From a bacterium (lineage in GTDB: Bacteria; Hinthialibacterota; Hinthialibacteria; Hinthialibacterales; Hinthialibacteraceae), in assembly GCA_963663405.2 (NCBI GenBank), contig CAXXSM010000105.1, positions 32,001 to 96,000 on the forward strand: a stretch of 64,000 bases of DNA, written 5' to 3'. The translations under genes were made by a program, and so were the position numbers. The notes under the pieces are model-generated. The model saw only the letters and a program-made list of their open reading frames with translations, ran no database searches and was not told the DNA's origin. This document shows, piece after piece, positions 3 through 32,781 of the stretch (within the stretch, counting starts at the first letter, position 1; each line of letters begins with the position of its first letter).

Positions 3-1496
3 TTCGCCAACGCCGAATCCATTCGCGATAACTTGGGATTTCGCCTCGGTACATTGGAGAATCGGCATACTGTGGATGGATACACATGTGAGTCTTTAAC
101 CGATCAATGGGAATGGAGAGTGTTCCGTGTCGATAATAGTAACGCGTGGCTTGGAAACTTAGCCGATAGTACTGGTGGGGGCCAATACGGAGGCGTCAAT
201 GGAGGCACGATCCGCTTTCAAAATACGACCGGCCTGATTTTCCGGGCTGTGGCGATCGGTCCGGAAGGCGCATTTGGGGATCCGGATAGGATCAATAGAT
301 CCAATACCGTTGACTTTGATCCCAATCCATACGCCATTCTTGCGGAATGGGATATCGACAAAGGAATTACCAACGGACTCGATCTTTACATGGATGAAGA
401 AGGTGATCAGGAACCAATCATTTCTGAGTCTATCGGCCCCGCTGACGATCAACGCAAAGCGGCCCGGCCCGCCAAGGGAGATGGAAGCGATGGGATTGAA
501 GACAATTACCTGAATTGGTTGATCCTCGACGAACACTTCGGTCCAACCAGTCAGCCCAGTTTCCGCATCAAAGTAGTCGCAGAATATTACGACGATCCCA
601 TCCTGGCGGGAGAAACGTTTGGACCAGATGTCTACATGACTGCTGGCGGTGGTGATCCCGTACCTTATCCGGCTGAAAATTGGACGGTCCTAACGGGAAG
701 CGGCCAGTGGCTGGAAGCGGAATGGTATGTGCCTGATGTTAAACTCATCGGTGTGAATATCCCGTCGGACGCGCAGGCCGGGCCACGCTTCTATTTTAGC
801 GGGCCTATTTACATAAGCCGTCTCCGTATGGGCGCCATCCGGTCATCGGGCATTTATGAAGGCGTCGATCCGATTCCGGATTCGTACCCATTCAATCCCG
901 ATCCCTATGGAATCTATGCGGAAATGGATTTAGATCAAGATCTCTTTGATCATCTCAATATGGCCAATAACGGAGGCGATCAGGAATATATCATTGAGGA
1001 AGGAATAGGCCCGGCTGGTGATATTCGAACCGCTGTGCGCCCCGCTTTGGATTTGGGGACGGATCCATTTGACCGGTATATGAATTTTGCGATTTTGGAT
1101 GAGGTATTCGGTCCCAACGATCAGCCCAACGCCGTGGTAAAAATGGCTGTCGATTATTTCGATGATCCAGAACTGATTGGCGCGCAATTCGGAGCGGAAG
1201 TGTATAAAACAAACGCGTTTGGAACGCTTCAGATTGTCTCGGTTCCCAACGATCAACGTATCACTCTTGAAGGCGCCAACACTTGGCGCACCGCCGCCTG
1301 GCAGGTTGATAATTTAAACTTCAGCGGTGTAAACGTCAGCCCGCAAGGAGCGATGCGCCTCTGGTTTTCGGATAACAGCGCGATTCATATCAGCCGGGTT
1401 CGCATTGCGGTGATCCGGCCCGTTGGAGAATTCGCGGGTGTGGATATGCTGGCGGATGTTCCTTTAACCCCCGTCACCGGATGGGAATTGTACTAA
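3..1496 (+). CDS. Acidic, probably secreted protein with tandem ~190-aa repeats and C-terminal PVTGWELY; 5'-truncated by the window edge
   Basis: Frame is open from nt 3. Two clear internal repeats (PYAILAEWDID..GDQE..IGP..D.R..Y.N..ILDE.FGP..QP..DY.DDP..G..FG..VY) plus a partial third. D/E-rich. Confidence 0.8.
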   Translation, partial: FANAESIRDNLGFRLGTLENRHTVDGYTCESLTDQWEWRVFRVDNSNAWLGNLADSTGGGQYGGVNGGTIRFQNTTGLIFRAVAIGPEGAFGDPDRINRSNTVDFDPNPYAILAEWDIDKGITNGLDLYMDEEGDQEPIISESIGPADDQRKAARPAKGDGSDGIEDNYLNWLILDEHFGPTSQPSFRIKVVAEYYDDPILAGETFGPDVYMTAGGGDPVPYPAENWTVLTGSGQWLEAEWYVPDVKLIGVNIPSDAQAGPRFYFSGPIYISRLRMGAIRSSGIYEGVDPIPDSYPFNPDPYGIYAEMDLDQDLFDHLNMANNGGDQEYIIEEGIGPAGDIRTAVRPALDLGTDPFDRYMNFAILDEVFGPNDQPNAVVKMAVDYFDDPELIGAQFGAEVYKTNAFGTLQIVSVPNDQRITLEGANTWRTAAWQVDNLNFSGVNVSPQGAMRLWFSDNSAIHISRVRIAVIRPVGEFAGVDMLADVPLTPVTGWELY

Positions 1497-1559
1497 ATGC
1501 ACAAAGTGGAACCATGCGATTGAATTACGCTTTGCGGGATAAACGCTGTCACAAAGAAC

Positions 1560-1592
1560 GGGGCGTGGAAGAATCTATTCCACGCCCCATTT
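1560..1592. terminator. Hairpin between convergent genes, probable terminator
   Basis: GGGGCGTGGAA(1560-1570)...TTCCACGCCCC(1578-1588), a perfect 11-bp stem between two convergent stop codons. Confidence 0.7.
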
Positions 1593-1619
1593 CAAACTGT
1601 CTTATCGAGAAAAATTAAC

Positions 1620-3002
1620 TTAGCGCAACATCCAACTTTCAACGCTGGCGGGCATGTGATCGGATGTGACGGTCAACCGGACGACATTGGTGAATCCAGC
1701 GCCTGTCGCGTAAATGATGATGAATGAGTCGCTGACGGGATCGTATTTGACATCATGATAGTTAGCGTCGTTGCTGATCGCAGTAGGTGTTTCCACCAGT
1801 TTGTATAGATCGTCAGGACGCCCTGGGAGGATTTCACCTTCCGGACCGAGAAGCGTAAACACCATCCCCTGAAAACCTCCGCTGGCGTTGTGAGATATCA
1901 CAATTACACCGCTGTTTGGATCGGCGGCAAGCCGTGGATGACGCTGGCTGAACGGCACACTTCCTGCCGCTTCCAAATAAGGAATTTGTTCCCGCGCTTC
2001 TTCCAAAACGTAATCGGGCGCCGGACCGATATTGAAATAGAAAATATCGCCGCCTTCCGCGCCGTTCGCGTAATCGAGAACACCAATAAATTCTCCATTA
2101 AAAGGATTCTCAATGGCGGAGGGATGGCCGGCGTCGAAATTCTTGCGCAGCTGGGAAACGATTCGTTGTTCACCCAATTGCAGACTACCATCATCGCCCG
2201 GCACAGTTTGAATCATCCGGCTTGAGATCCGATTGGGAGATGTGGATGGATCAATGTTTGTGATAAAGAGGAAGACGTCGTTCTCTTCTAAATAATAGAC
2301 GTCTGGATCGTCTTCATCACGTGTTGGTTCGAGAGAATCCAATCGAGTCGCTTCAGCGGTCAGGAGATTGCCGTCCTGATCGTACAGCAGACCGATAACG
2401 CCTTCACTTTCATCGGGTGGATCATATTCGGACACATAGATCATGTTCCCATTTTGCGAACTGCACGCTACGGCGGTATCCTGATAATTGAATTCGGTTT
2501 CCGGATCAAACGACCACGCTTTCACAACGGGATCCGCATCCCCTGCCGCGCTCTTGGCGTTAACGATCGCCATCAACGGAACGCGCGCGCCCGTGGGGGA
2601 ATAGCCGTCCGCCGCCACCGCTACAAAGTATTGGTTGCTGACCGGATTGTAGGCGACGGTCAATTTCTGCAATTCTCCGTAGGGATTGCCGACAATAATA
2701 AAAGGATCGCCGACTTGTGTGAGGGTCACAGGATTGTAAAAGAAACCCATGACCGCATGGACAGCGGGGTCTCCCGTGATGGGATCGTTATCCACCGCGA
2801 TGGTGTCGATCGTAACGAACAGGATTTCCGGTTCGTTTGTGTTCACGGCCAATCCCGCTTCTTTGGTGCTGGTCTCTTCAAACAGGGTGATCGGTTCACT
2901 GATCGTGAACTCGGGTTCCTGCGCGGCGGCGAAGCCACATAAGACGAGATTCGCCAGGATAGCGAACACCGCGCATTTGCTTAAAATACCTTTTTTCATC
3001 AC
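1620..3002 (-). CDS. Secreted acidic protein, possibly a beta-propeller, ending ...ASVESWMLR
   Basis: 460 aa, Sec signal (MKKGILSKCAVFAILANLVLCGFAAA-Q), RBS GGAGGT, repeated V.Y.P.S..F-type blade motifs. Confidence 0.8.
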   Translation of the reverse strand: MMKKGILSKCAVFAILANLVLCGFAAAQEPEFTISEPITLFEETSTKEAGLAVNTNEPEILFVTIDTIAVDNDPITGDPAVHAVMGFFYNPVTLTQVGDPFIIVGNPYGELQKLTVAYNPVSNQYFVAVAADGYSPTGARVPLMAIVNAKSAAGDADPVVKAWSFDPETEFNYQDTAVACSSQNGNMIYVSEYDPPDESEGVIGLLYDQDGNLLTAEATRLDSLEPTRDEDDPDVYYLEENDVFLFITNIDPSTSPNRISSRMIQTVPGDDGSLQLGEQRIVSQLRKNFDAGHPSAIENPFNGEFIGVLDYANGAEGGDIFYFNIGPAPDYVLEEAREQIPYLEAAGSVPFSQRHPRLAADPNSGVIVISHNASGGFQGMVFTLLGPEGEILPGRPDDLYKLVETPTAISNDANYHDVKYDPVSDSFIIIYATGAGFTNVVRLTVTSDHMPASVESWMLR

Positions 3003-3296
3003 ATACCTCCATTAAAAAAAATGTGTTTTGTGGATTCAGAACAGATAGAACCCAATACAAAGACGGCAAAAGTATAACTTGTATAGTGTTCAGGTCAGAA
3101 GTCCGTCTCTCCACGATAGCGGCAATTTAATGATATAATAATGTTCTTAATAGTATGTTAACGCTTTTTTCTTATTATTAATAGTGTACATCGAAAGAAT
3201 GCCCTAAAAGAAGATCACCATTTTTAAAAAACCGAGAGACTACAAATGCAAGTTGGAGAGATGATATTTAACCTTTGAAAGGGAGGAGTTTATTTC

Positions 3297-3455
3297 ATGG
3301 AAACATTTTTAGCGAAAATCTGCCAAGTGTGTCCGTTTTGTATTGCGAGGCGGAAATGGCCGGATAGCGGGTACGCTCGATTTATGCGCAAGATAGAAAA
3401 AAACTGCCCGTTTTGCCGCGCGTACAATCGATTGAAGGCGAAAGAGCGGAAGTGA
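3297..3455 (+). CDS. 52-aa Cys-rich, probably metal-binding mini-protein (CxxCPFC...CPFC)
   Basis: Hand translation: METFLAKICQVCPFCIARRKWPDSGYARFMRKIEKNCPFCRAYNRLKAKERK. Strong RBS GGGAGGAG at 3281-3288. Too short for the ORF track. Confidence 0.75.
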   Translation: METFLAKICQVCPFCIARRKWPDSGYARFMRKIEKNCPFCRAYNRLKAKERK

Positions 3456-3803
3456 TATATAGGCTATTCAATTAATCCAATATAGTGTTATTAAGCGCTT
3501 TCTCCATCAACGACGATAGAGGATAATAAAGATAGACTCTAGTCGTTGAGCGAAACAAATATTTATTAGAATCTGTCTCCAAGAAATCTCTAGGTAAATG
3601 ACCATTCCCTCACGATCTGTGTGACTGACGCTCAATAATCATGCGCAAACAGTCTATGACCAATTTTGCGAGGTGTAGATAACTCTCATTAAATAAAAGG
3701 TTATATAATAAGTAATTAATGAAAACGATTTCTTAGAAACTAAACCAAAAACAGCTTTGAGTGGTTCATAAAATCAAACCACCGGCTCATTCGAAGATCA
3801 TGA

Positions 3804-4853
3804 CTAAAATGGCAAACCGCAATTTACACTTATGGTGCGATGTCGAAGAGCAGAATTGTCTGAAGGGAAATAAGCAGCAGCATATATTTCTACATCAGCA
3901 ATTAAGCTAATATCAGCTTGGCTGTTTTGCTCCCATTCAATAAAACCAAAACCAGTTATAAAATCGTTGTTATTCTTCATTTTCAAAAGTATTGTCTTTT
4001 GTGGCAATAAATCAAATTGGACAGTATTATTTGTAGTTGATCCAGTATTTTCAATGTATGTACCTGAAGTAGTTCCATCTATTAGTACTGTAAGTAATCC
4101 GCTATTTTTATCATTATTATCCGTTAATATAGAACCATCACTCTTTACTAATGTAACATAAACAGTTGAAACATCGTCTGCAATATTTGATATACTTATA
4201 AAACACTCATGATCATGGTATCCGGAATCATAACAACTCCACTTAGAGATATATGCTTTTCCTCTAGCCTTCGGGATAACATCAACTACAATCTCCGCAG
4301 GTTGATCTAAATCCACATATTCTTTACTAGGTATACGGACATCCACAAGACTTTCTGTGGTTGGCCGCATGGCTAGGCCATTATTAGCTGCTGTTCCGTC
4401 CACCCAAGCTTTTACTAGGTCTGTAATATCTACGACAATGGTTGTACCGATTTCCTCAGTGATAAATACATGATTGGCTTCGACTACAGCATTGACGGGC
4501 GGCATGTTGGAGGCTGTAATCGCGCTTTCGTTCCATGAACCTTCCACGGAAGCGAATTCCACTTCGCCCGGTGAATCCATGATGTTGACATACAATTTTA
4601 GATGCGCGCTTACAATATCCGAACCGCGATACTCTGCCAGAGTGGCGGTGTCAAACTTAAAAAATCCAAGTCGTCCTTGGCCAACAACATCATCCGCGCG
4701 CACATGGTTATTCGCACCCACATTGGTGTCAGGAAGAAATTCCAACACAGTAGCGTCATCAGTGACTGGTAATGTAAGCGTATCTGCATAAGTTGAAACA
4801 GCCCCAATAAAAAGGATACTCGTGATCGTTAAAACTAGACTTACGCTTCTCAT
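3804..4853 (-). CDS. Secreted DNRLRE/CBM96-like domain protein with an additional low-GC C-terminal domain
   Basis: Signal peptide, then DDATV..PDTN..G...FFKFD..SAHLKLYV..W.ES.IT..N.P...DITDLVKAWVDG..NNGL, typical of DNRLRE domains. Start set at MRSVSL after the GGAG RBS. Confidence 0.7.
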   Translation of the reverse strand: MRSVSLVLTITSILFIGAVSTYADTLTLPVTDDATVLEFLPDTNVGANNHVRADDVVGQGRLGFFKFDTATLAEYRGSDIVSAHLKLYVNIMDSPGEVEFASVEGSWNESAITASNMPPVNAVVEANHVFITEEIGTTIVVDITDLVKAWVDGTAANNGLAMRPTTESLVDVRIPSKEYVDLDQPAEIVVDVIPKARGKAYISKWSCYDSGYHDHECFISISNIADDVSTVYVTLVKSDGSILTDNNDKNSGLLTVLIDGTTSGTYIENTGSTTNNTVQFDLLPQKTILLKMKNNNDFITGFGFIEWEQNSQADISLIADVEIYAAAYFPSDNSALRHRTISVNCGLPF

Positions 4854-5308
4854 AATTCTCCACCTTTGCATAGATATTTACAGAACTAAATATATTTATG
4901 CAGTTCTGTTATTAATTTCTTTGATTGAAAATTAAATGCAAAAATCACTCTATCTTAAAAATATAAAATTCAAAAGTCAAGTGAGCCTTTTACAAAATAG
5001 ATAAAGAGGATGTTTTTCATAATATAGATCAACAATCATGTAGAACTCTAGAAAATGGACATTATTTCGGAAATCTCCTGTAGATAGATTTTCAAATGAA
5101 AGAAAAATATATTTTATCTGACGGTGTGCGTCTATTTGAATTAAATTCTGATTGAAATTTTTTCACACCTCTTGTCTGAATCGTCAACACAAATCAAACT
5201 GTTAGCGAGTGATTAGGAGGAATGCTGAGGCCATAGAGTATCTCTCCGCCGTTCGTTTTCACACCGATACGAAAGAACTCGATCTTTTCCACATCAGGAG
5301 CACAATGG

Positions 5309-6319
5309 ATGAAGTTACTTATCACCGGAGCGTCCGGTTATCTGGGCGCCGCGATTTTGCACGAGGCGCTCGCGGAAGGGTATCGAATACGGGTGTTACT
5401 CCGTCCTGAATCGGATCGCAGCCAAATTCCAGACGAAGTGGAAATCATTCAAGGCAATCTACTTGATTCGCATTCTCTTCATCAAGCGATGAAAGGCTGC
5501 GGCGCTGTGATTCATTCCGCGGGGCTGGTTTCGATCTGGCGCCGCAATCCAAATGATTTTTATCAAACCAACGTATTGGGAACCGTTAACATATTGCGCG
5601 CGGCGCGGGATGAAAAAGTGGCGCGCGTCGTGTATACCTCGTCGTTTTTCGCACTCGGCCCCACCCGCGAACGGCCCGCGGATGAAACCTGGAGCAACCA
5701 TCTCACCCTGCCGCCAACCGAATATGCGCGGAGCAAAACCGAAGCGGATAAACGAGTCATGAATTGGGTTGAGGAAGGAAACAACGCAGTCCTGCTCTAT
5801 CCCGTATTTTTATATGGGCCAGGGAAATCAGAGAAAGGGAACTGTGTTTCCACGCTATTGGAAGACTATATAAATAGAAGAATCCCCGGTGTCATCTATG
5901 GAGGGAATAAACGCTGGACTTATTCCTACCTACAGGATGTGGCGCGCGGTCACATTCTCGCCTTGGAAAAAGGACGTACGGGAGAGAAATATATCCTTGG
6001 CGGAGAAGACGCGACGCTGCGAGAGTTATTCGACATTGTGAAAGATATTACAGGCGTGGAACGCTCACGCGGAAGACGAACCTCGCGCTTTCTCAACCAA
6101 TACGCTTGGTTGGAGGAGACAAAAGCGCGTTTTTTCAAACAATATACTCCAAAAATGACACGGGAGAGTTTGGGCGTTTACCGGCATCATTGGCGGTATT
6201 CTTCCCAGAAAGCCATCGGTGAATTAGGCTACATTCGCACGCCGTTGAAAGTAGGAATCATAAAAACGCTGGAAAGCCTGGGGCTGGCGCCGAAAGAAGA
6301 CCGGAGCACAATTCTATAA
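5309..6319 (+). CDS. NAD-dependent epimerase/dehydratase (extended SDR, HpnA/dihydroflavonol-reductase-like)
   Basis: ITGASGYLG Rossmann motif, YTSS, catalytic YARSK, DVARGH..A...G..GE.YILGG. Confidence 0.9.
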   Translation: MKLLITGASGYLGAAILHEALAEGYRIRVLLRPESDRSQIPDEVEIIQGNLLDSHSLHQAMKGCGAVIHSAGLVSIWRRNPNDFYQTNVLGTVNILRAARDEKVARVVYTSSFFALGPTRERPADETWSNHLTLPPTEYARSKTEADKRVMNWVEEGNNAVLLYPVFLYGPGKSEKGNCVSTLLEDYINRRIPGVIYGGNKRWTYSYLQDVARGHILALEKGRTGEKYILGGEDATLRELFDIVKDITGVERSRGRRTSRFLNQYAWLEETKARFFKQYTPKMTRESLGVYRHHWRYSSQKAIGELGYIRTPLKVGIIKTLESLGLAPKEDRSTIL

Positions 6320-6356
6320 TTGTTTTTTATCGATTTCGTGGAAACGCAACTTTGAT

Positions 6357-7391
6357 TTAGAAAAGACTCCAATGATATACGGAGACGGGTTCACCGGCGA
6401 TCGAACCCGCGTTCAATCCATCAAGGCCCAAGCCGGACGCGGGAGAGCCGGATTGGAGGTTGAAATCCAGATCGGCGTTCAACGTTCCGGGCGTCACGTT
6501 GACGTACAATGGATTATAAACGACAGAGTCAATAATTTCCGGTTCGGCGCCGCCCGTCACCAAGAGTTCTCCTTCCGAAACCAGATCCCAGAGCACCGAA
6601 TTTTTAATCGTTAATGATCCTTGTGTCAGATAGATATCATCAGTTTCGACAGTTCCATCATTGCCGTTCGTTGCAAGGAGTATGGAATTGGTAATGGTGA
6701 CGGAAGGCCCTTCATTAGGGGCGGCTTCAGGATCATCGAGCCTCATGCTCACGGCTAAGTCATGATTAAAAAAATCACAATGGTCAAAGGTGGCGTACGA
6801 GGTATCCCGGAGATTGATGATTGAAGAAGGGGCGCCGAAATCGGATGGATAATCGGCTGTGATCGCGAAGACACAGTTCTTTACAATCATGGGCGCGGCG
6901 GGTGTTCCAACCGTCCGTCCACCGGTTGATTTGAAGATCGTCTGGCAGTTGATAAACCATACATTCTCAAAGATGACAGGAGCGTCTGAAGGCGAATCGA
7001 CACTTCCCGTGCGTAGATCAAGCGCGCGGCCATCCGCGTTCAAGATCGTTATGTTCCGGATAATCGCAGGCCCCCGAATCGAAAAGGCTCTTGCGTCATC
7101 CTCCGAGGCTGAATAGGAATAGAAATCCAAGATGGTCGCTTCGGGACCGAGACCGCTGCCCGAACCTTCGAGTACGGGAGTTTCATCTTGAAAACGCAGT
7201 TGAACGCCCATCTCATAAAGACCTGGCGCGAGTTTCATGGTATACGTGTCATCATAGTCTCTTAAATCGATGGAAATTAATACAGCGTCTTCTGGTTCGT
7301 ATTCCAGGATTTCCTGTGAAACCGCCGGTACAATAAAGAAAAGCGCAAGAATAAGAAAGGAGCCGATGCTCATTCCATTTCGGTTAGCCAT
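6357..7391 (-). CDS. Secreted acidic protein, likely right-handed beta-helix (pectin-lyase-like), ending ...VSVYHWSLF
   Basis: Signal peptide, LAPGLY, LEGSG..ATILD, repeated (I/V)xNxx(F/I) strands, P.YV...DFNLQSGSPA...G.NAG tail. RBS GGAGG before MANRN. Confidence 0.75.
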   Translation of the reverse strand: MANRNGMSIGSFLILALFFIVPAVSQEILEYEPEDAVLISIDLRDYDDTYTMKLAPGLYEMGVQLRFQDETPVLEGSGSGLGPEATILDFYSYSASEDDARAFSIRGPAIIRNITILNADGRALDLRTGSVDSPSDAPVIFENVWFINCQTIFKSTGGRTVGTPAAPMIVKNCVFAITADYPSDFGAPSSIINLRDTSYATFDHCDFFNHDLAVSMRLDDPEAAPNEGPSVTITNSILLATNGNDGTVETDDIYLTQGSLTIKNSVLWDLVSEGELLVTGGAEPEIIDSVVYNPLYVNVTPGTLNADLDFNLQSGSPASGLGLDGLNAGSIAGEPVSVYHWSLF

Positions 7392-18957: not shown

Positions 18958-19584
18958 TCACTCATAATACCGCTTATTGGACGCCATTAGATCGCCTGAT
19001 GAGATGACGCCGTTGGATGGATTGTATAAAATATCAAGATGGTCCGTTCCACTGTCAAGCCCTCTCCAGAGGGGGACGTTGTTCCAGCCGATATCCTGTA
19101 AATCGGAATATTCGTCCGGACCGGCGGAATTGATCCAATATTTAAGGCCAATGGAAGTCAGTTCGGGAGACCAATTGCTCGTTGCGCCACCGGAGGCGAC
19201 AATGACTTCCGCGCTGTAGCCAAAAATCGCCAGCCATCCGTATGGGTACGCGACGTTCTTCGCTTCGTATGGATTTCTGATGATTTGATTGATATACGGC
19301 ACGGGGGTTGTCAGATGCTGCCAGGTCCGGGGTTCGAAGTACGAATGATCTGGTGGATAGGCGTTATTATCCACATAATACGCGCCCATCGCCGTTTGGA
19401 GTGACCGGATATCCGCCTTGACGCGGGCGACCTTCGCGCGGGACATGGCGGATAAAAAGTTGGGCACGGCGATCGCGGCTAAAATCCCGATAATAGCGAC
19501 AACAATTAGTAATTCGATCAACGTGAAAGCGGATTTCGATCGTAACGATCTTGATATTCTTTCTGTGACACTATTGATGTTCAT
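18958..19584 (-). CDS. Prepilin-type N-terminal methylation domain protein (GspG-like pseudopilin)
   Basis: SA/FTLIELLIVVAIIGILAAIAVPNF class III signal; Y.VD.N.YP, LTTPV.Y, SAGPD, YNPSNG..S.GD. Confidence 0.92.
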   Translation of the reverse strand: MNINSVTERISRSLRSKSAFTLIELLIVVAIIGILAAIAVPNFLSAMSRAKVARVKADIRSLQTAMGAYYVDNNAYPPDHSYFEPRTWQHLTTPVPYINQIIRNPYEAKNVAYPYGWLAIFGYSAEVIVASGGATSNWSPELTSIGLKYWINSAGPDEYSDLQDIGWNNVPLWRGLDSGTDHLDILYNPSNGVISSGDLMASNKRYYE

Positions 19585-31395: not shown

Positions 31396-32781
31396 CTAAA
31401 GTTTCCATGGTTCCCGATATTCATAATGTAGTAATTCATTCGCCTCTTTATTGTTCGTGATTACTTCTTTATCCGCATCCCAATCAATCCGTGATTTCGT
31501 CTGTAAGGCGATATTGCCCAGATGGGCGAATGTAGTCGAGCGATGCCCCGTTTCGAGATCGCAGTTGGGCGTTTCACGGGATTTAACGCAGTCCAGGAAA
31601 TTGCGGATATTTTGATACGTTAGATCGCCGTCCATCGATTCCACTTTCTCATTTTTCACATTCGATTTCTGGGTTTGGAACTGTCCGGGTCTTGCGGGAA
31701 TAATTGAGTATCCATTGCCTTCCGATCCGGTATAAATGTTACCGAGTGTGCCCCGGAATTCGATTTCACCTTCAAGGAGAGCAGGGCCGCTGTTGGCTTC
31801 GTATTGTCCGAATATCAGCAGACATCCCGACGGCAGTTCGAAGATCACTTCCATCGTATCAGGAACCGTGCGATCGTCATCAACCGCGAAGCGTCCTCCA
31901 TGCGCTGAAACTGAAATGGGAGCCAATTCATTGAGAACCCAGCGGATCGCGTCGCAGTAATGAACGCCCCAGTTCGCTATCTGAGACGAATATTTCTGCC
32001 ACCACCGAAATTTATATGGCGTGATATTGGTTTGAAACGAACGGTCGTTTCGTGGACCGAGCCACATATCCCAATTGAAATTCTTCAATGGTTTTTCCGG
32101 CTTATTCTTATTGATTCCAAGTGGATACATATTGCTGATTCGATACGCCCGCGCCACGGTCACTTTCCCGATCATTCCGTTTTGCACCTGCTCGCTGACC
32201 TGGCGGTACATCTTCGAGGACCGGCGGTGCAGACCGACCTGCACGACACGATTGGTTTTCTTGGCCACCTCAACCATTTTCCGGCCTTCGTAAACGGTGA
32301 TGGACAGCGGTTTCTCGACGTAGACATCCTTCCCCGCCTCGCAGGCCATGATCATTTGAATCGCATGCCAGTGATCCGGGGTGGCGATGGTTACCGCGTC
32401 GATATCATTCTGTTCCAACACACGCCGGAAATCCCCACAGCGCATAACATTATGATCAAATTTCTCTCCCATCCGGGGGATTCTCCCCCCAAGCGCGTCA
32501 AGCATATCCTTATCGACTTTGGACAGATCGCGCTGCACGTATGGTTCGTACACATCGCAGAGCGCCGCCACTTCCATATCGTCATTTTTCATAAAAGCGC
32601 TCAATAACTGAGATCCCCGGTTGCCCACGCCGATGAATCCAACCCGGATCCGGTCGTTAGCGCCTAGGACTCGGTTGCTTGAAACTGCGCTCAATCCCAT
32701 TGTCACTCCCGCCGCCGCAATAGCCGACTTGCCGAAAAATCCCCGCCGTGTTGACTTCGTCTGTTTTTCACTCATCGTCAT
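31396..32781 (-). CDS. Tat-exported Gfo/Idh/MocA family oxidoreductase
   Basis: TRRGFF Tat motif, GANDRIRVGFIGVGNRG, ATPDHWH, KDVYVEKP, NWGVHY.D. Confidence 0.93.
   Translation of the reverse strand: MTMSEKQTKSTRRGFFGKSAIAAAGVTMGLSAVSSNRVLGANDRIRVGFIGVGNRGSQLLSAFMKNDDMEVAALCDVYEPYVQRDLSKVDKDMLDALGGRIPRMGEKFDHNVMRCGDFRRVLEQNDIDAVTIATPDHWHAIQMIMACEAGKDVYVEKPLSITVYEGRKMVEVAKKTNRVVQVGLHRRSSKMYRQVSEQVQNGMIGKVTVARAYRISNMYPLGINKNKPEKPLKNFNWDMWLGPRNDRSFQTNITPYKFRWWQKYSSQIANWGVHYCDAIRWVLNELAPISVSAHGGRFAVDDDRTVPDTMEVIFELPSGCLLIFGQYEANSGPALLEGEIEFRGTLGNIYTGSEGNGYSIIPARPGQFQTQKSNVKNEKVESMDGDLTYQNIRNFLDCVKSRETPNCDLETGHRSTTFAHLGNIALQTKSRIDWDADKEVITNNKEANELLHYEYREPWKL

Follow-up and report, generated by a model that had tools for sequence, protein, structure and literature searches.

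The DNA analysed here, which we call the window, is a stretch of 64,000 nucleotides (positions 32,001 to 96,000 of contig CAXXSM010000105.1, assembly GCA_963663405.2) from a bacterium of the Hinthialibacterota. It carries three genes for acidic, exported proteins that end in much the same nine-residue peptide, which we will call the tail (Table 1). The tail is modular, is under selection at the protein level, sits on acidic proteins with signal peptides, is restricted to certain lineages, occupies positions where anchors are found, and is enriched beside pseudopilin genes. It was noticed in a first-pass annotation made from the letters of the window, which placed V at -7, W at -4 and L at -2, and all three ends have these residues at these positions. 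Two particulars of that annotation need amendment. For the third gene the tail and the frame were right, but the proposed start at 7391 is an internal ATG and the gene runs to 7403. Sec signals were noted for the two complete proteins, but signal-peptide-like N-termini are not limited to these, as the product of gene 1 also has one. The bodies of the three proteins were called unrelated, and so they are: each forms a singleton cluster in an all-against-all BLAST comparison of tagged proteins, and proteins 1 and 3 have no mutual similarity (best E 1.1). Genes 1 and 2 match no Pfam or NCBIfam family, and gene 3 has a weak match, below the cut-off, to the right-handed beta-helix family PF13229 (E 6e-4).

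Table 1. Positions within the window of the tagged genes, their tails and the other genes mentioned in the text
Feature	Position	Strand	Remarks
Tagged gene 1, 3' part	3..1496	+	whole gene 618 aa, start 360 nt upstream of the window; internally repeated, acidic, exported
Tail 1, TPVTGWELY	1467..1493	+	stop codon 1494-1496; weight-matrix score 21.0 bits
Tagged gene 2, 460 aa	1620..3002	-	signal-peptide-like start
Tail 2, ASVESWMLR	1623..1649	-	stop codon 1620-1622; weight-matrix score 17.4 bits
Tagged gene 3, 348 aa	6357..7403	-	signal-peptide-like start
Tail 3, VSVYHWSLF	6360..6386	-	stop codon 6357-6359; weight-matrix score 21.9 bits
GspG-like pseudopilin gene	18958-19584	-	one of ~130 in the genome
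DNRLRE / CBM96-domain protein gene	3804-4871	-	signal peptide; lies between tagged genes
Tandem open reading frame, 151 aa	11347-11802	-	paralogous to the next
Tandem open reading frame, 135 aa	11899-12306	-	paralogous to the previous

The tail is real and far beyond chance in the genome from which the window comes (G000; an 8.44-Mb assembly in 170 contigs, 82% complete). Among 28461 stop-to-stop open reading frames (ORFs) of at least 80 aa taken from the whole assembly, 72 end in V..W.L[YFRH], where 0.37 would be expected from the internal frequency of the motif in the same ORFs (61 internal occurrences). This is about 200-fold above background, so the signature does not occur genome-wide at background frequency. 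The dependence on the very end is sharp, with only 6, 4 and 1 occurrences when the motif is displaced inward by 1, 2 and 3-10 residues. A relaxed form, [VI]..W.[LIMVF][YFHRW]$, is found at the end of 141 ORFs, 136 of which are among our 7070 gene calls. (The gene calls, made greedily, and the signal-peptide test used below are both home-made heuristics.) With an iterated weight matrix of 10 columns, allowing 0-3 trailing residues and a threshold of at least 12 bits, 188 of the 7070 genes carry the tail against about 0.3 expected from internal windows, which amounts to some 2.7% of the proteome.

From these carriers a consensus can be written as [T/V/S](-9) [P/A/S](-8) [V/I](-7) x [D/N/E](-5) W(-4) x [L/I/V/M](-2) [Y/F/H](-1) stop. 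The tryptophan is replaced by Y or F in only eight of the 188 proteins and the last residue is Y, F or H in 176. The tail stands at the very end in 149 carriers, is trailed by a single residue (E, K, D or Q) in 34 and by two or three residues in five. All synonymous codons are used at the conserved positions (for Val at -7, GTT 36, GTA 27, GTC 27 and GTG 26 times), which means that it is the peptide that is selected, rather than a DNA element. On average no flexible linker precedes the tail; residues -19..-13 form a hydrophobic stretch and residues -12..-10 a polar spacer.

When the 141 ORFs found with the relaxed pattern are stripped of their last 12 residues, they fall into 68 clusters that have no BLAST link at E<1e-5, the largest of them with 22, 17 and 12 members. 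The suggestion that the tail belongs to exported proteins is borne out: N-termini are signal-peptide-like, by our heuristic, in 110 of 132 tagged ORFs compared with 2285 of 7670 control ORFs, and in 145 of the 188 weight-matrix carriers compared with 1545 of all 7070 genes. The richness in aspartate and glutamate also extends beyond the window (D+E 15.0% in tagged proteins and 12.3% in other signal-peptide-like proteins), and is accompanied by a low content of K+R (5.5% versus 10.3%) and a median net charge per residue of -0.093 versus -0.019. Pfam and NCBIfam scans of 68 tagged proteins, drawn from 57 of the clusters, found GH127 and GH5 glycoside hydrolases, C1 (papain-like) and S8 (subtilisin-like) peptidases, sulfatase, FGE, CotH with lamin-tail (LTD), LamG, CBM9, LRR, cohesin/dockerin, PPC, FG-GAP and beta-helix domains.

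Could such a tail be a part of the fold? The hydrophobic stretch and the three-residue, turn-like polar spacer are compatible with a beta-hairpin, in which the tail would pair with the last beta-strand of the terminal domain and protect it from edge aggregation or from C-terminal proteolysis, with no reader acting in trans. We give this idea next to no credence. One sequence-specific cap is hard to imagine for 68 unrelated bodies that include beta-helices, LRRs, alpha/beta hydrolases and propeller-like folds; an invariant tryptophan at a fixed distance from the end is typical of a recognition peptide; and in relatives of this bacterium, as described below, a dockerin-like module would have to be replacing the cap.

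Two other C-terminal regularities were met among the exported proteins of this genome. Members of the 17-member LRR cluster (e. g. C138:9184-10197 and C150:67117-68214) have a conserved cysteine stretch, ..[SE]PQ.{1,7}C[EG]T, directly before the tail. The other is a recurrent C-terminal module some 35 residues long (..IIDCGDQVNLLE[IV]PYW.Y..L..LGI...C.), which ends six otherwise different exported proteins of 242-2904 aa, all encoded outside the window (C36:83059-84177, C4:83666-92380, C6:33714-34442, C110:4085-5197, C130:165612-168596 and C132:22628-25072). Immediately downstream of its C36 copy are two tagged genes and a pseudopilin gene.

No model of Pfam or NCBIfam accounts for the tail, in keeping with the first-pass annotation. 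Full-length scans of the 68 proteins placed no Pfam or NCBIfam model over it, and a permissive NCBIfam scan of the last 40 residues found no family in more than one of the 68. NCBIfam gave no match to a sorting domain at any of these ends. None of the ends match the domain of the type IX secretion system (T9SS; TIGR04183/PF18962), and the one weak T9SS match is internal (residues 2095-2147 of a 3288-aa tagged protein). A search for the T9SS family across the whole genome, run without a positive control, was empty, as was one for PEP_CTERM (e. g. TIGR02595) at E<=0.001, likewise without a positive control. A crude scan of the same genome for tripartite signals returned 56 genes with a transmembrane-plus-basic C-terminus, of which one is signal-peptide-like and none has PEP or LPxTG. 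Dockerin_1 covers the tail in none of the 68 carriers and the D-x-[DN]-x-D-G loop is lacking from the tail logo. Literature searches, whose scope left out subscription journals and supplements, found no published description of the tail, and the accessible portion of PMC9324843 has no mention of 'C-terminal', 'secretion' or 'sorting'.

To see how far the tail extends we surveyed 110 genomes in two phyla, named here by their record labels, with a 30-nt degenerate DNA pattern for the tail and its stop codon. The control was the same pattern read backwards, and a genome was called enriched if its count was at least 2.5-fold over the control with a net count of at least 10. The window's own genome has 133 matches versus 10 in the control. 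In its phylum (Hinthialibacterota/OLB16) the tail is enriched in 28 of 35 genomes, namely in 20/20 of family f1, 5/6 of f2/f3 and 3/4 of genus g19; three genomes are borderline (G014, G019, G032) and four are tail-poor (G021, G029, G030, G031). In the second phylum (Sumerlaeota) the same criterion selects 15 of 75 genomes, and about 50 count as tail-poor. G045 is left out of this number, as several of its matches (e. g. C6:8322-8351 and C37:27874-27903) belong to a near-identical DNA repeat (..GTGTCTTTGTGGTGAATTTT..) and are not protein ends. This phylum is that of two genomes with the Sumerlaeota label, which lie outside the 35 of the home phylum.

A stricter DNA pattern was also run against one genome per species for 185,579 species, and the reading frame was judged for 80 of the 91 matched stretches. 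The match is preceded by an open frame of 50 codons or more in 19 of 19 stretches from Sumerlaeota, 7 of 8 from Omnitrophota/Hinthialibacteria and 27 of 28 from unnamed metagenome-assembled genomes (MAGs), and in 1 of 25 from all other taxa. The tail is thus lineage-specific, as had been suggested: among the matches listed, it is a real protein end almost only in these three groups.

The 460-aa protein of gene 2 illustrates the same pattern. Tail-bearing homologues of it are common in MAGs of the same lineage, under labels that include 'Candidatus Omnitrophota bacterium' and 'Candidatus Hinthialibacter sp.', and about 45 close homologues end in ..V..WM[LIVM][YFHQ], a few of them extended by 1-5 residues. 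Distant homologues, about 750 aa long, have different ends. With this protein as a query, no homologue was found in five tail-poor or weakly enriched genomes. The longer tail-less homologues from other lineages (P0038-P0053, P0058, P0059, P0062, P0063) have a motif of their own in common, ..[FY][FY]R[LTASV], 2-5 residues before the stop, which may be another unrecognised terminal signature. A search for replacements of the tail with a CotH domain as the query gave only four weak matches (E 1e-6 to 7e-4). Two ORFs found with this query in tail-poor G021 (L091 and L094) end in ..GQWRSLR* and ..SAWHFLR*, and these ..W..LR ends may be a variant of the tail that the DNA pattern misses.

What the tail might do is suggested by where it stands. 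'Choice-of-anchor' domains are so named because they precede alternative anchors such as LPXTG, PEP-CTERM and T9SS signals (as set out in the accessible part of bioRxiv 10.1101/2023.03.06.531300). In one tagged protein of the window's genome a choice-of-anchor Q domain (NCBIfam) ends 16 residues before the stop, and another tagged protein has choice_anch_X. The architecture that defines such domains (NF041518, NF041940), in which the domain lies immediately N-terminal to an anchor or sorting signal, is the one found with the tail. When the best choice-of-anchor Q locus per genome is taken, 12 of the 28 loci have the tail (plus 0-3 residues) within 10-17 residues past the domain, all 12 in tail-rich genomes; within the window's genome this is so for three of eight matches. 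In the tail-poor genomes G021, G029, G030 and G031, 15 of the 20 choice-of-anchor Q matches fetched are instead followed by a module of 30-60 residues with an EF-hand-like loop and a helix. Six of these 15 modules match Pfam Dockerin_1, and 'dockerin-like' is meant as resemblance, not membership, since only one of the 15 is above the cut-off. A strict DNA pattern for the dockerin loop occurs 29-32 times in G019, G021, G029, G030 and G031, 7-13 times in genus g19 and 0-9 times in the 26 genomes of f1-f3, against 0 in the control. Within the home phylum, the tail and the dockerin-like ending are complementary. As the genomes are related, this complementarity may reflect few evolutionary events.

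The swap invites the thought that the tail is itself a minimal docking peptide. It would then have no role at the outer membrane and would tether secreted enzymes or adhesins to an extracellular scaffold or surface receptor, much as in a cellulosome. That the tail takes the place of the dockerin-like module after choice-of-anchor Q, and that the two are inversely distributed in the home phylum, is what one would expect. In two proteins of the window's genome the last domain is a cohesin and the tail comes after it, an arrangement reminiscent of cohesin-dockerin proteins of the scaffoldin type. Cohesin matches are present in all 35 home-phylum genomes and persist in tail-rich ones with few dockerin loops (11 cohesin matches and three loops in the window's genome); and a surface complex of cohesin and dockerin has been proposed for Planctomycetes (in the part of PMC6461901 available to us). 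Yet a Pfam cohesin is not a required partner of the tail, since several second-phylum genomes rich in the tail have no cohesin match or only a weak one: G083, with 15 tail matches against 0 in the control, has no cohesin candidate, and G035, G084 and G101 have single weak matches only. G040 has 21 dockerin loops and no cohesin, and the tail has neither a calcium-binding loop nor a Dockerin_1 match, nor, on average, the flexible linker that a tether usually has. Cohesin and tail counts are unrelated across genomes, and cohesin as the reader is weakened accordingly. We would call a purely extracellular docking role unlikely.

The company of choice-of-anchor domains raises a further possibility, that the tail is removed by a sortase-like or PorU-like transpeptidase that joins the cargo covalently to lipid, lipopolysaccharide or a component of the cell wall. 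The known anchors that follow these domains (LPXTG, PEP-CTERM, T9SS) work in this way, as is partly general knowledge and partly drawn from the accessible text of bioRxiv 10.1101/2023.03.06.531300, and the strict end position with a conserved pair of small residues at -9/-8 could mark a processing site. However, there is no transmembrane helix or basic tail that would hold the substrate at a membrane enzyme, no folded domain of the T9SS type, and no candidate enzyme from the analysis of gene neighbourhoods. Such cleavage seems to us distinctly improbable.

In the window's genome, enrichment within three genes of tagged genes is strongest for a family of some 130 GspG-like pseudopilins (with Pfam matches to N_methyl and T2SSG; 131 matches by DNA pattern and 136 by regular expression). 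The proportion of genes with a pseudopilin gene adjacent on the same strand is 13/136 for tagged genes, 35/1436 for other signal-peptide-like ones and 94/5362 for the remainder, so that such a neighbour is about four times commoner beside tail genes than beside other genes for exported proteins. A prepilin motif lies on the same strand within 300 nt past the tail's stop codon in 4 of the 133 pattern matches, where 0.31 would be expected. The arrangement recurs in a genome of a different genus, G010, where it is seen in 7 of the 100 matches listed (about 0.2 expected by our own estimate), and in the second-phylum genome G036, where a pilin gene adjoins one of 14 tagged genes in the loci fetched. 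The window's genome encodes 7-8 secretins and at least three clusters like those of type II secretion systems (T2SS).

This replicated adjacency, together with the precedent of TcpF and TcpB (described in the accessible portion of PMC9565799), is the reason why, among possible readers, we prefer a component of a T2SS or type IV filament. One can go further and picture the tail as a linear signal for an exporter of this kind: some 190 folded, highly acidic cargos per cell would attach to pseudopilin-like subunits by their nine C-terminal residues, and would then be pushed through one of the several secretins or displayed on short fibres. In this complete form we consider the proposal unlikely. 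A predicted complex of a GspG-like pseudopilin (L002:5239-5796, residues 36-186, with an alignment of 8 rows) and the last 40 residues of its operon neighbour (L002:5109-5228, 50 rows) scored 0.00, which, with controls not run, speaks neither for nor against binding.

Readers of a different type have to be considered too. The tail could be a ligand for quality control, read by the PDZ domains of periplasmic HtrA- or S41-type proteases, so that exoproteins that become stuck are degraded or signalled. Outer membrane proteins with Y-x-F ends are read in this manner by DegS. The tail ends in Y, F or H in 176 of 188 carriers with an aliphatic residue before it, and the PDZ proteins of the window's genome have ordinary HtrA, S41 and M61 architectures, among them four proteases of the HtrA type and three of the S41 type, of which one is joined to a BlaR1-like M56 membrane sensor. 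If the last residue is numbered 0, as is customary for PDZ ligands, 0 is conserved but -2, which together with 0 usually sets the specificity, is variable, and it is -1, -3 and -6 that are conserved. Trailing residues are present in 39 of 188 carriers, and some genera tolerate up to five. Moreover, the protease families are near-universal and cannot explain a patchy distribution among lineages, and the place of the tail at anchor positions would be left unexplained. A quality-control role is very improbable in our judgement. The fusion protein, a 1108-aa product of C132:84155-87481 with a BlaR1-type M56 sensor peptidase, a YscJ/FliF_C segment, PDZ and S41, is of unusual architecture in its own right and could sense protein C-termini in the periplasm.

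Taking the observations together, we lean, with some reserve, towards the tail being a modular signal at the C-terminus, for the sorting or docking of proteins that Sec has already brought through the inner membrane. The signal would be a peptide of 9-10 residues at the free C-terminus, or one polar residue before it, and 3-5 residues past the last hydrophobic strand of the terminal domain. It would mark cargo of an extracellular type, such as glycoside hydrolases, peptidases, sulfatase, CotH, LamG, CBM9, LRR and beta-helix proteins. Such cargo would be taken across the inner membrane by Sec, and the tail would act afterwards, in trans: a receptor in the envelope would read it, and the cargo would then be moved across the outer membrane, held at the cell surface, or both. 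Of possible receptors, a T2SS or type IV filament component, for example one of the ~130 GspG-like pseudopilins, would be the preferred one, in parallel to TcpF-TcpB. The tail would in that case be one more 'choice of anchor', with the role that dockerin-like modules may have in tail-less relatives and that PEP-CTERM, LPXTG and T9SS signals have elsewhere.

Several observations weigh against a signal of this sort or against a pseudopilin as its reader. According to our heuristic, 43 of the 188 carriers have no signal peptide; many of them look like missed signal peptides, a Tat-like leader or truncated ORFs. In some genera as many as five residues may follow the tail, so a free carboxylate is not strictly needed directly behind the aromatic residue. 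In the second phylum, tail and dockerin-like module are less strictly complementary: 8-17 dockerin loops are found in four of its 15 tail-rich genomes, and many genomes lack both features. Only about 10% of the tagged genes have a pilin neighbour. Pseudopilin copy number does not follow the tail either, with 28-205 motifs in all 35 home-phylum genomes, the tail-poor ones included, and 10-128 in tail-rich and tail-free genomes of the second phylum alike, so we rejected it as a correlate. Nor do the pilins next to tagged genes form a distinct subfamily (mean 40.7 versus 33.8 bits, p ~0.05, not significant). No reader was found: besides pseudopilins and secreted paralogues, neighbourhood enrichment in the window's genome gave only small families with 3-7 genes near tags.

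Two observations made in the course of this search may be recorded separately. One 15-gene paralogous family has members within three genes of tagged genes in six cases. The other is the expansion of pseudopilins itself, to 10-205 motifs per genome in both phyla.

Not every exported protein of the window is tagged, given that the DNRLRE / CBM96-domain protein encoded between tagged genes is tail-less (it ends in ..NCGLPF). The tandem ORFs listed at the end of Table 1 have a common N-terminal F.WKDEY.V.IESIDSQHKK and look hemerythrin-like.

C-terminal sorting signals are the main route by which a surface or secreted proteome can be read from sequence, and with every new signal a new machine for processing or export has come to light. 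What is new here is the genome-wide count of the tail, its distribution over 110 genomes in two phyla with a global negative control, the exchange of tail and dockerin-like module behind the same domain, the adjacency to pseudopilin genes with its limits, and the evidence against cohesin as the partner. The host lineage consists of uncultured, polymer-degrading bacteria with large genomes, and the tail provides an immediate rule for annotating the exoproteome of MAGs of the Hinthialibacterota type and of some of the Sumerlaeota type. Its presence or absence across the 110 genomes offers a contrast well suited to a search for the reader. Should the reader prove to be a member of the T2SS/type IV filament family, the tail would open up the poorly understood question of how such machines recognize their cargo; and if the exporter proposal is correct, it would be the first sequence-defined, genome-wide cargo signal for a machine of this kind, common to two candidate phyla.

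We know several systems with which the tail can be compared, and in design it differs from every described signal, being a bare 9-mer with neither a membrane segment nor a folded domain. Tripartite signals (LPXTG/sortase, PEP-CTERM/exosortase, GlyGly-CTERM/rhombosortase and MYXO-CTERM) are, like the tail, short and lineage-restricted C-terminal signatures on many unrelated Sec-exported proteins, are found directly after choice-of-anchor domains, and have tens to hundreds of substrates per genome. In contrast to them, and in agreement with the first-pass annotation, the tail is followed by neither a transmembrane helix nor a basic tail, as no more than 0-3 residues separate the motif from the end of the protein. 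Dockerin (PF00404) is also a non-catalytic C-terminal addition to diverse extracellular enzymes, but it has 30-70 residues where the tail has nine, and the tail is without a calcium-binding loop or a Pfam match. Substrates of type I secretion, which have no Sec signal peptide, are a poor comparison, since 110 of 132 tagged ORFs are signal-peptide-like by our heuristic. Aromatic ends preceded by hydrophobic residues are known from envelope proteins, in the beta-signal of outer membrane proteins and in the Y-x-F C-termini that activate DegS. The tail resembles both in having a terminal aromatic residue after hydrophobic ones at the extreme C-terminus. Unlike that of the beta-signal, its hydrophobic pattern (-7, -4, -2, -1) is not alternating, and its bodies are soluble domains (GH5, GH127, S8, sulfatase, LamG) and not beta-barrels.

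A further comparison is with the secretion signal of type IVb pili, in which the flexible N-terminus of TcpF or CofJ hooks onto the minor pilin TcpB or CofB (for V. cholerae TcpF-TcpB, see the accessible portion of PMC9565799). There, as in our reading of the tail, a short terminal peptide on a Sec-exported protein is involved and pilin genes adjoin. The type IVb signal stands at the N-terminus of a single cargo per system, and its interaction with the pilin has been demonstrated (as the same portion of PMC9565799 has it); the tail is C-terminal and is found on about 190 putative cargos, only about 10% of them encoded beside a pseudopilin gene. The C-terminal domain of the T9SS (TIGR04183 / PF18962) is similar to the tail in position, in having no transmembrane segment and in belonging to Sec-exported cargo bound across the outer membrane; it differs in being a folded domain of some 70-100 residues.

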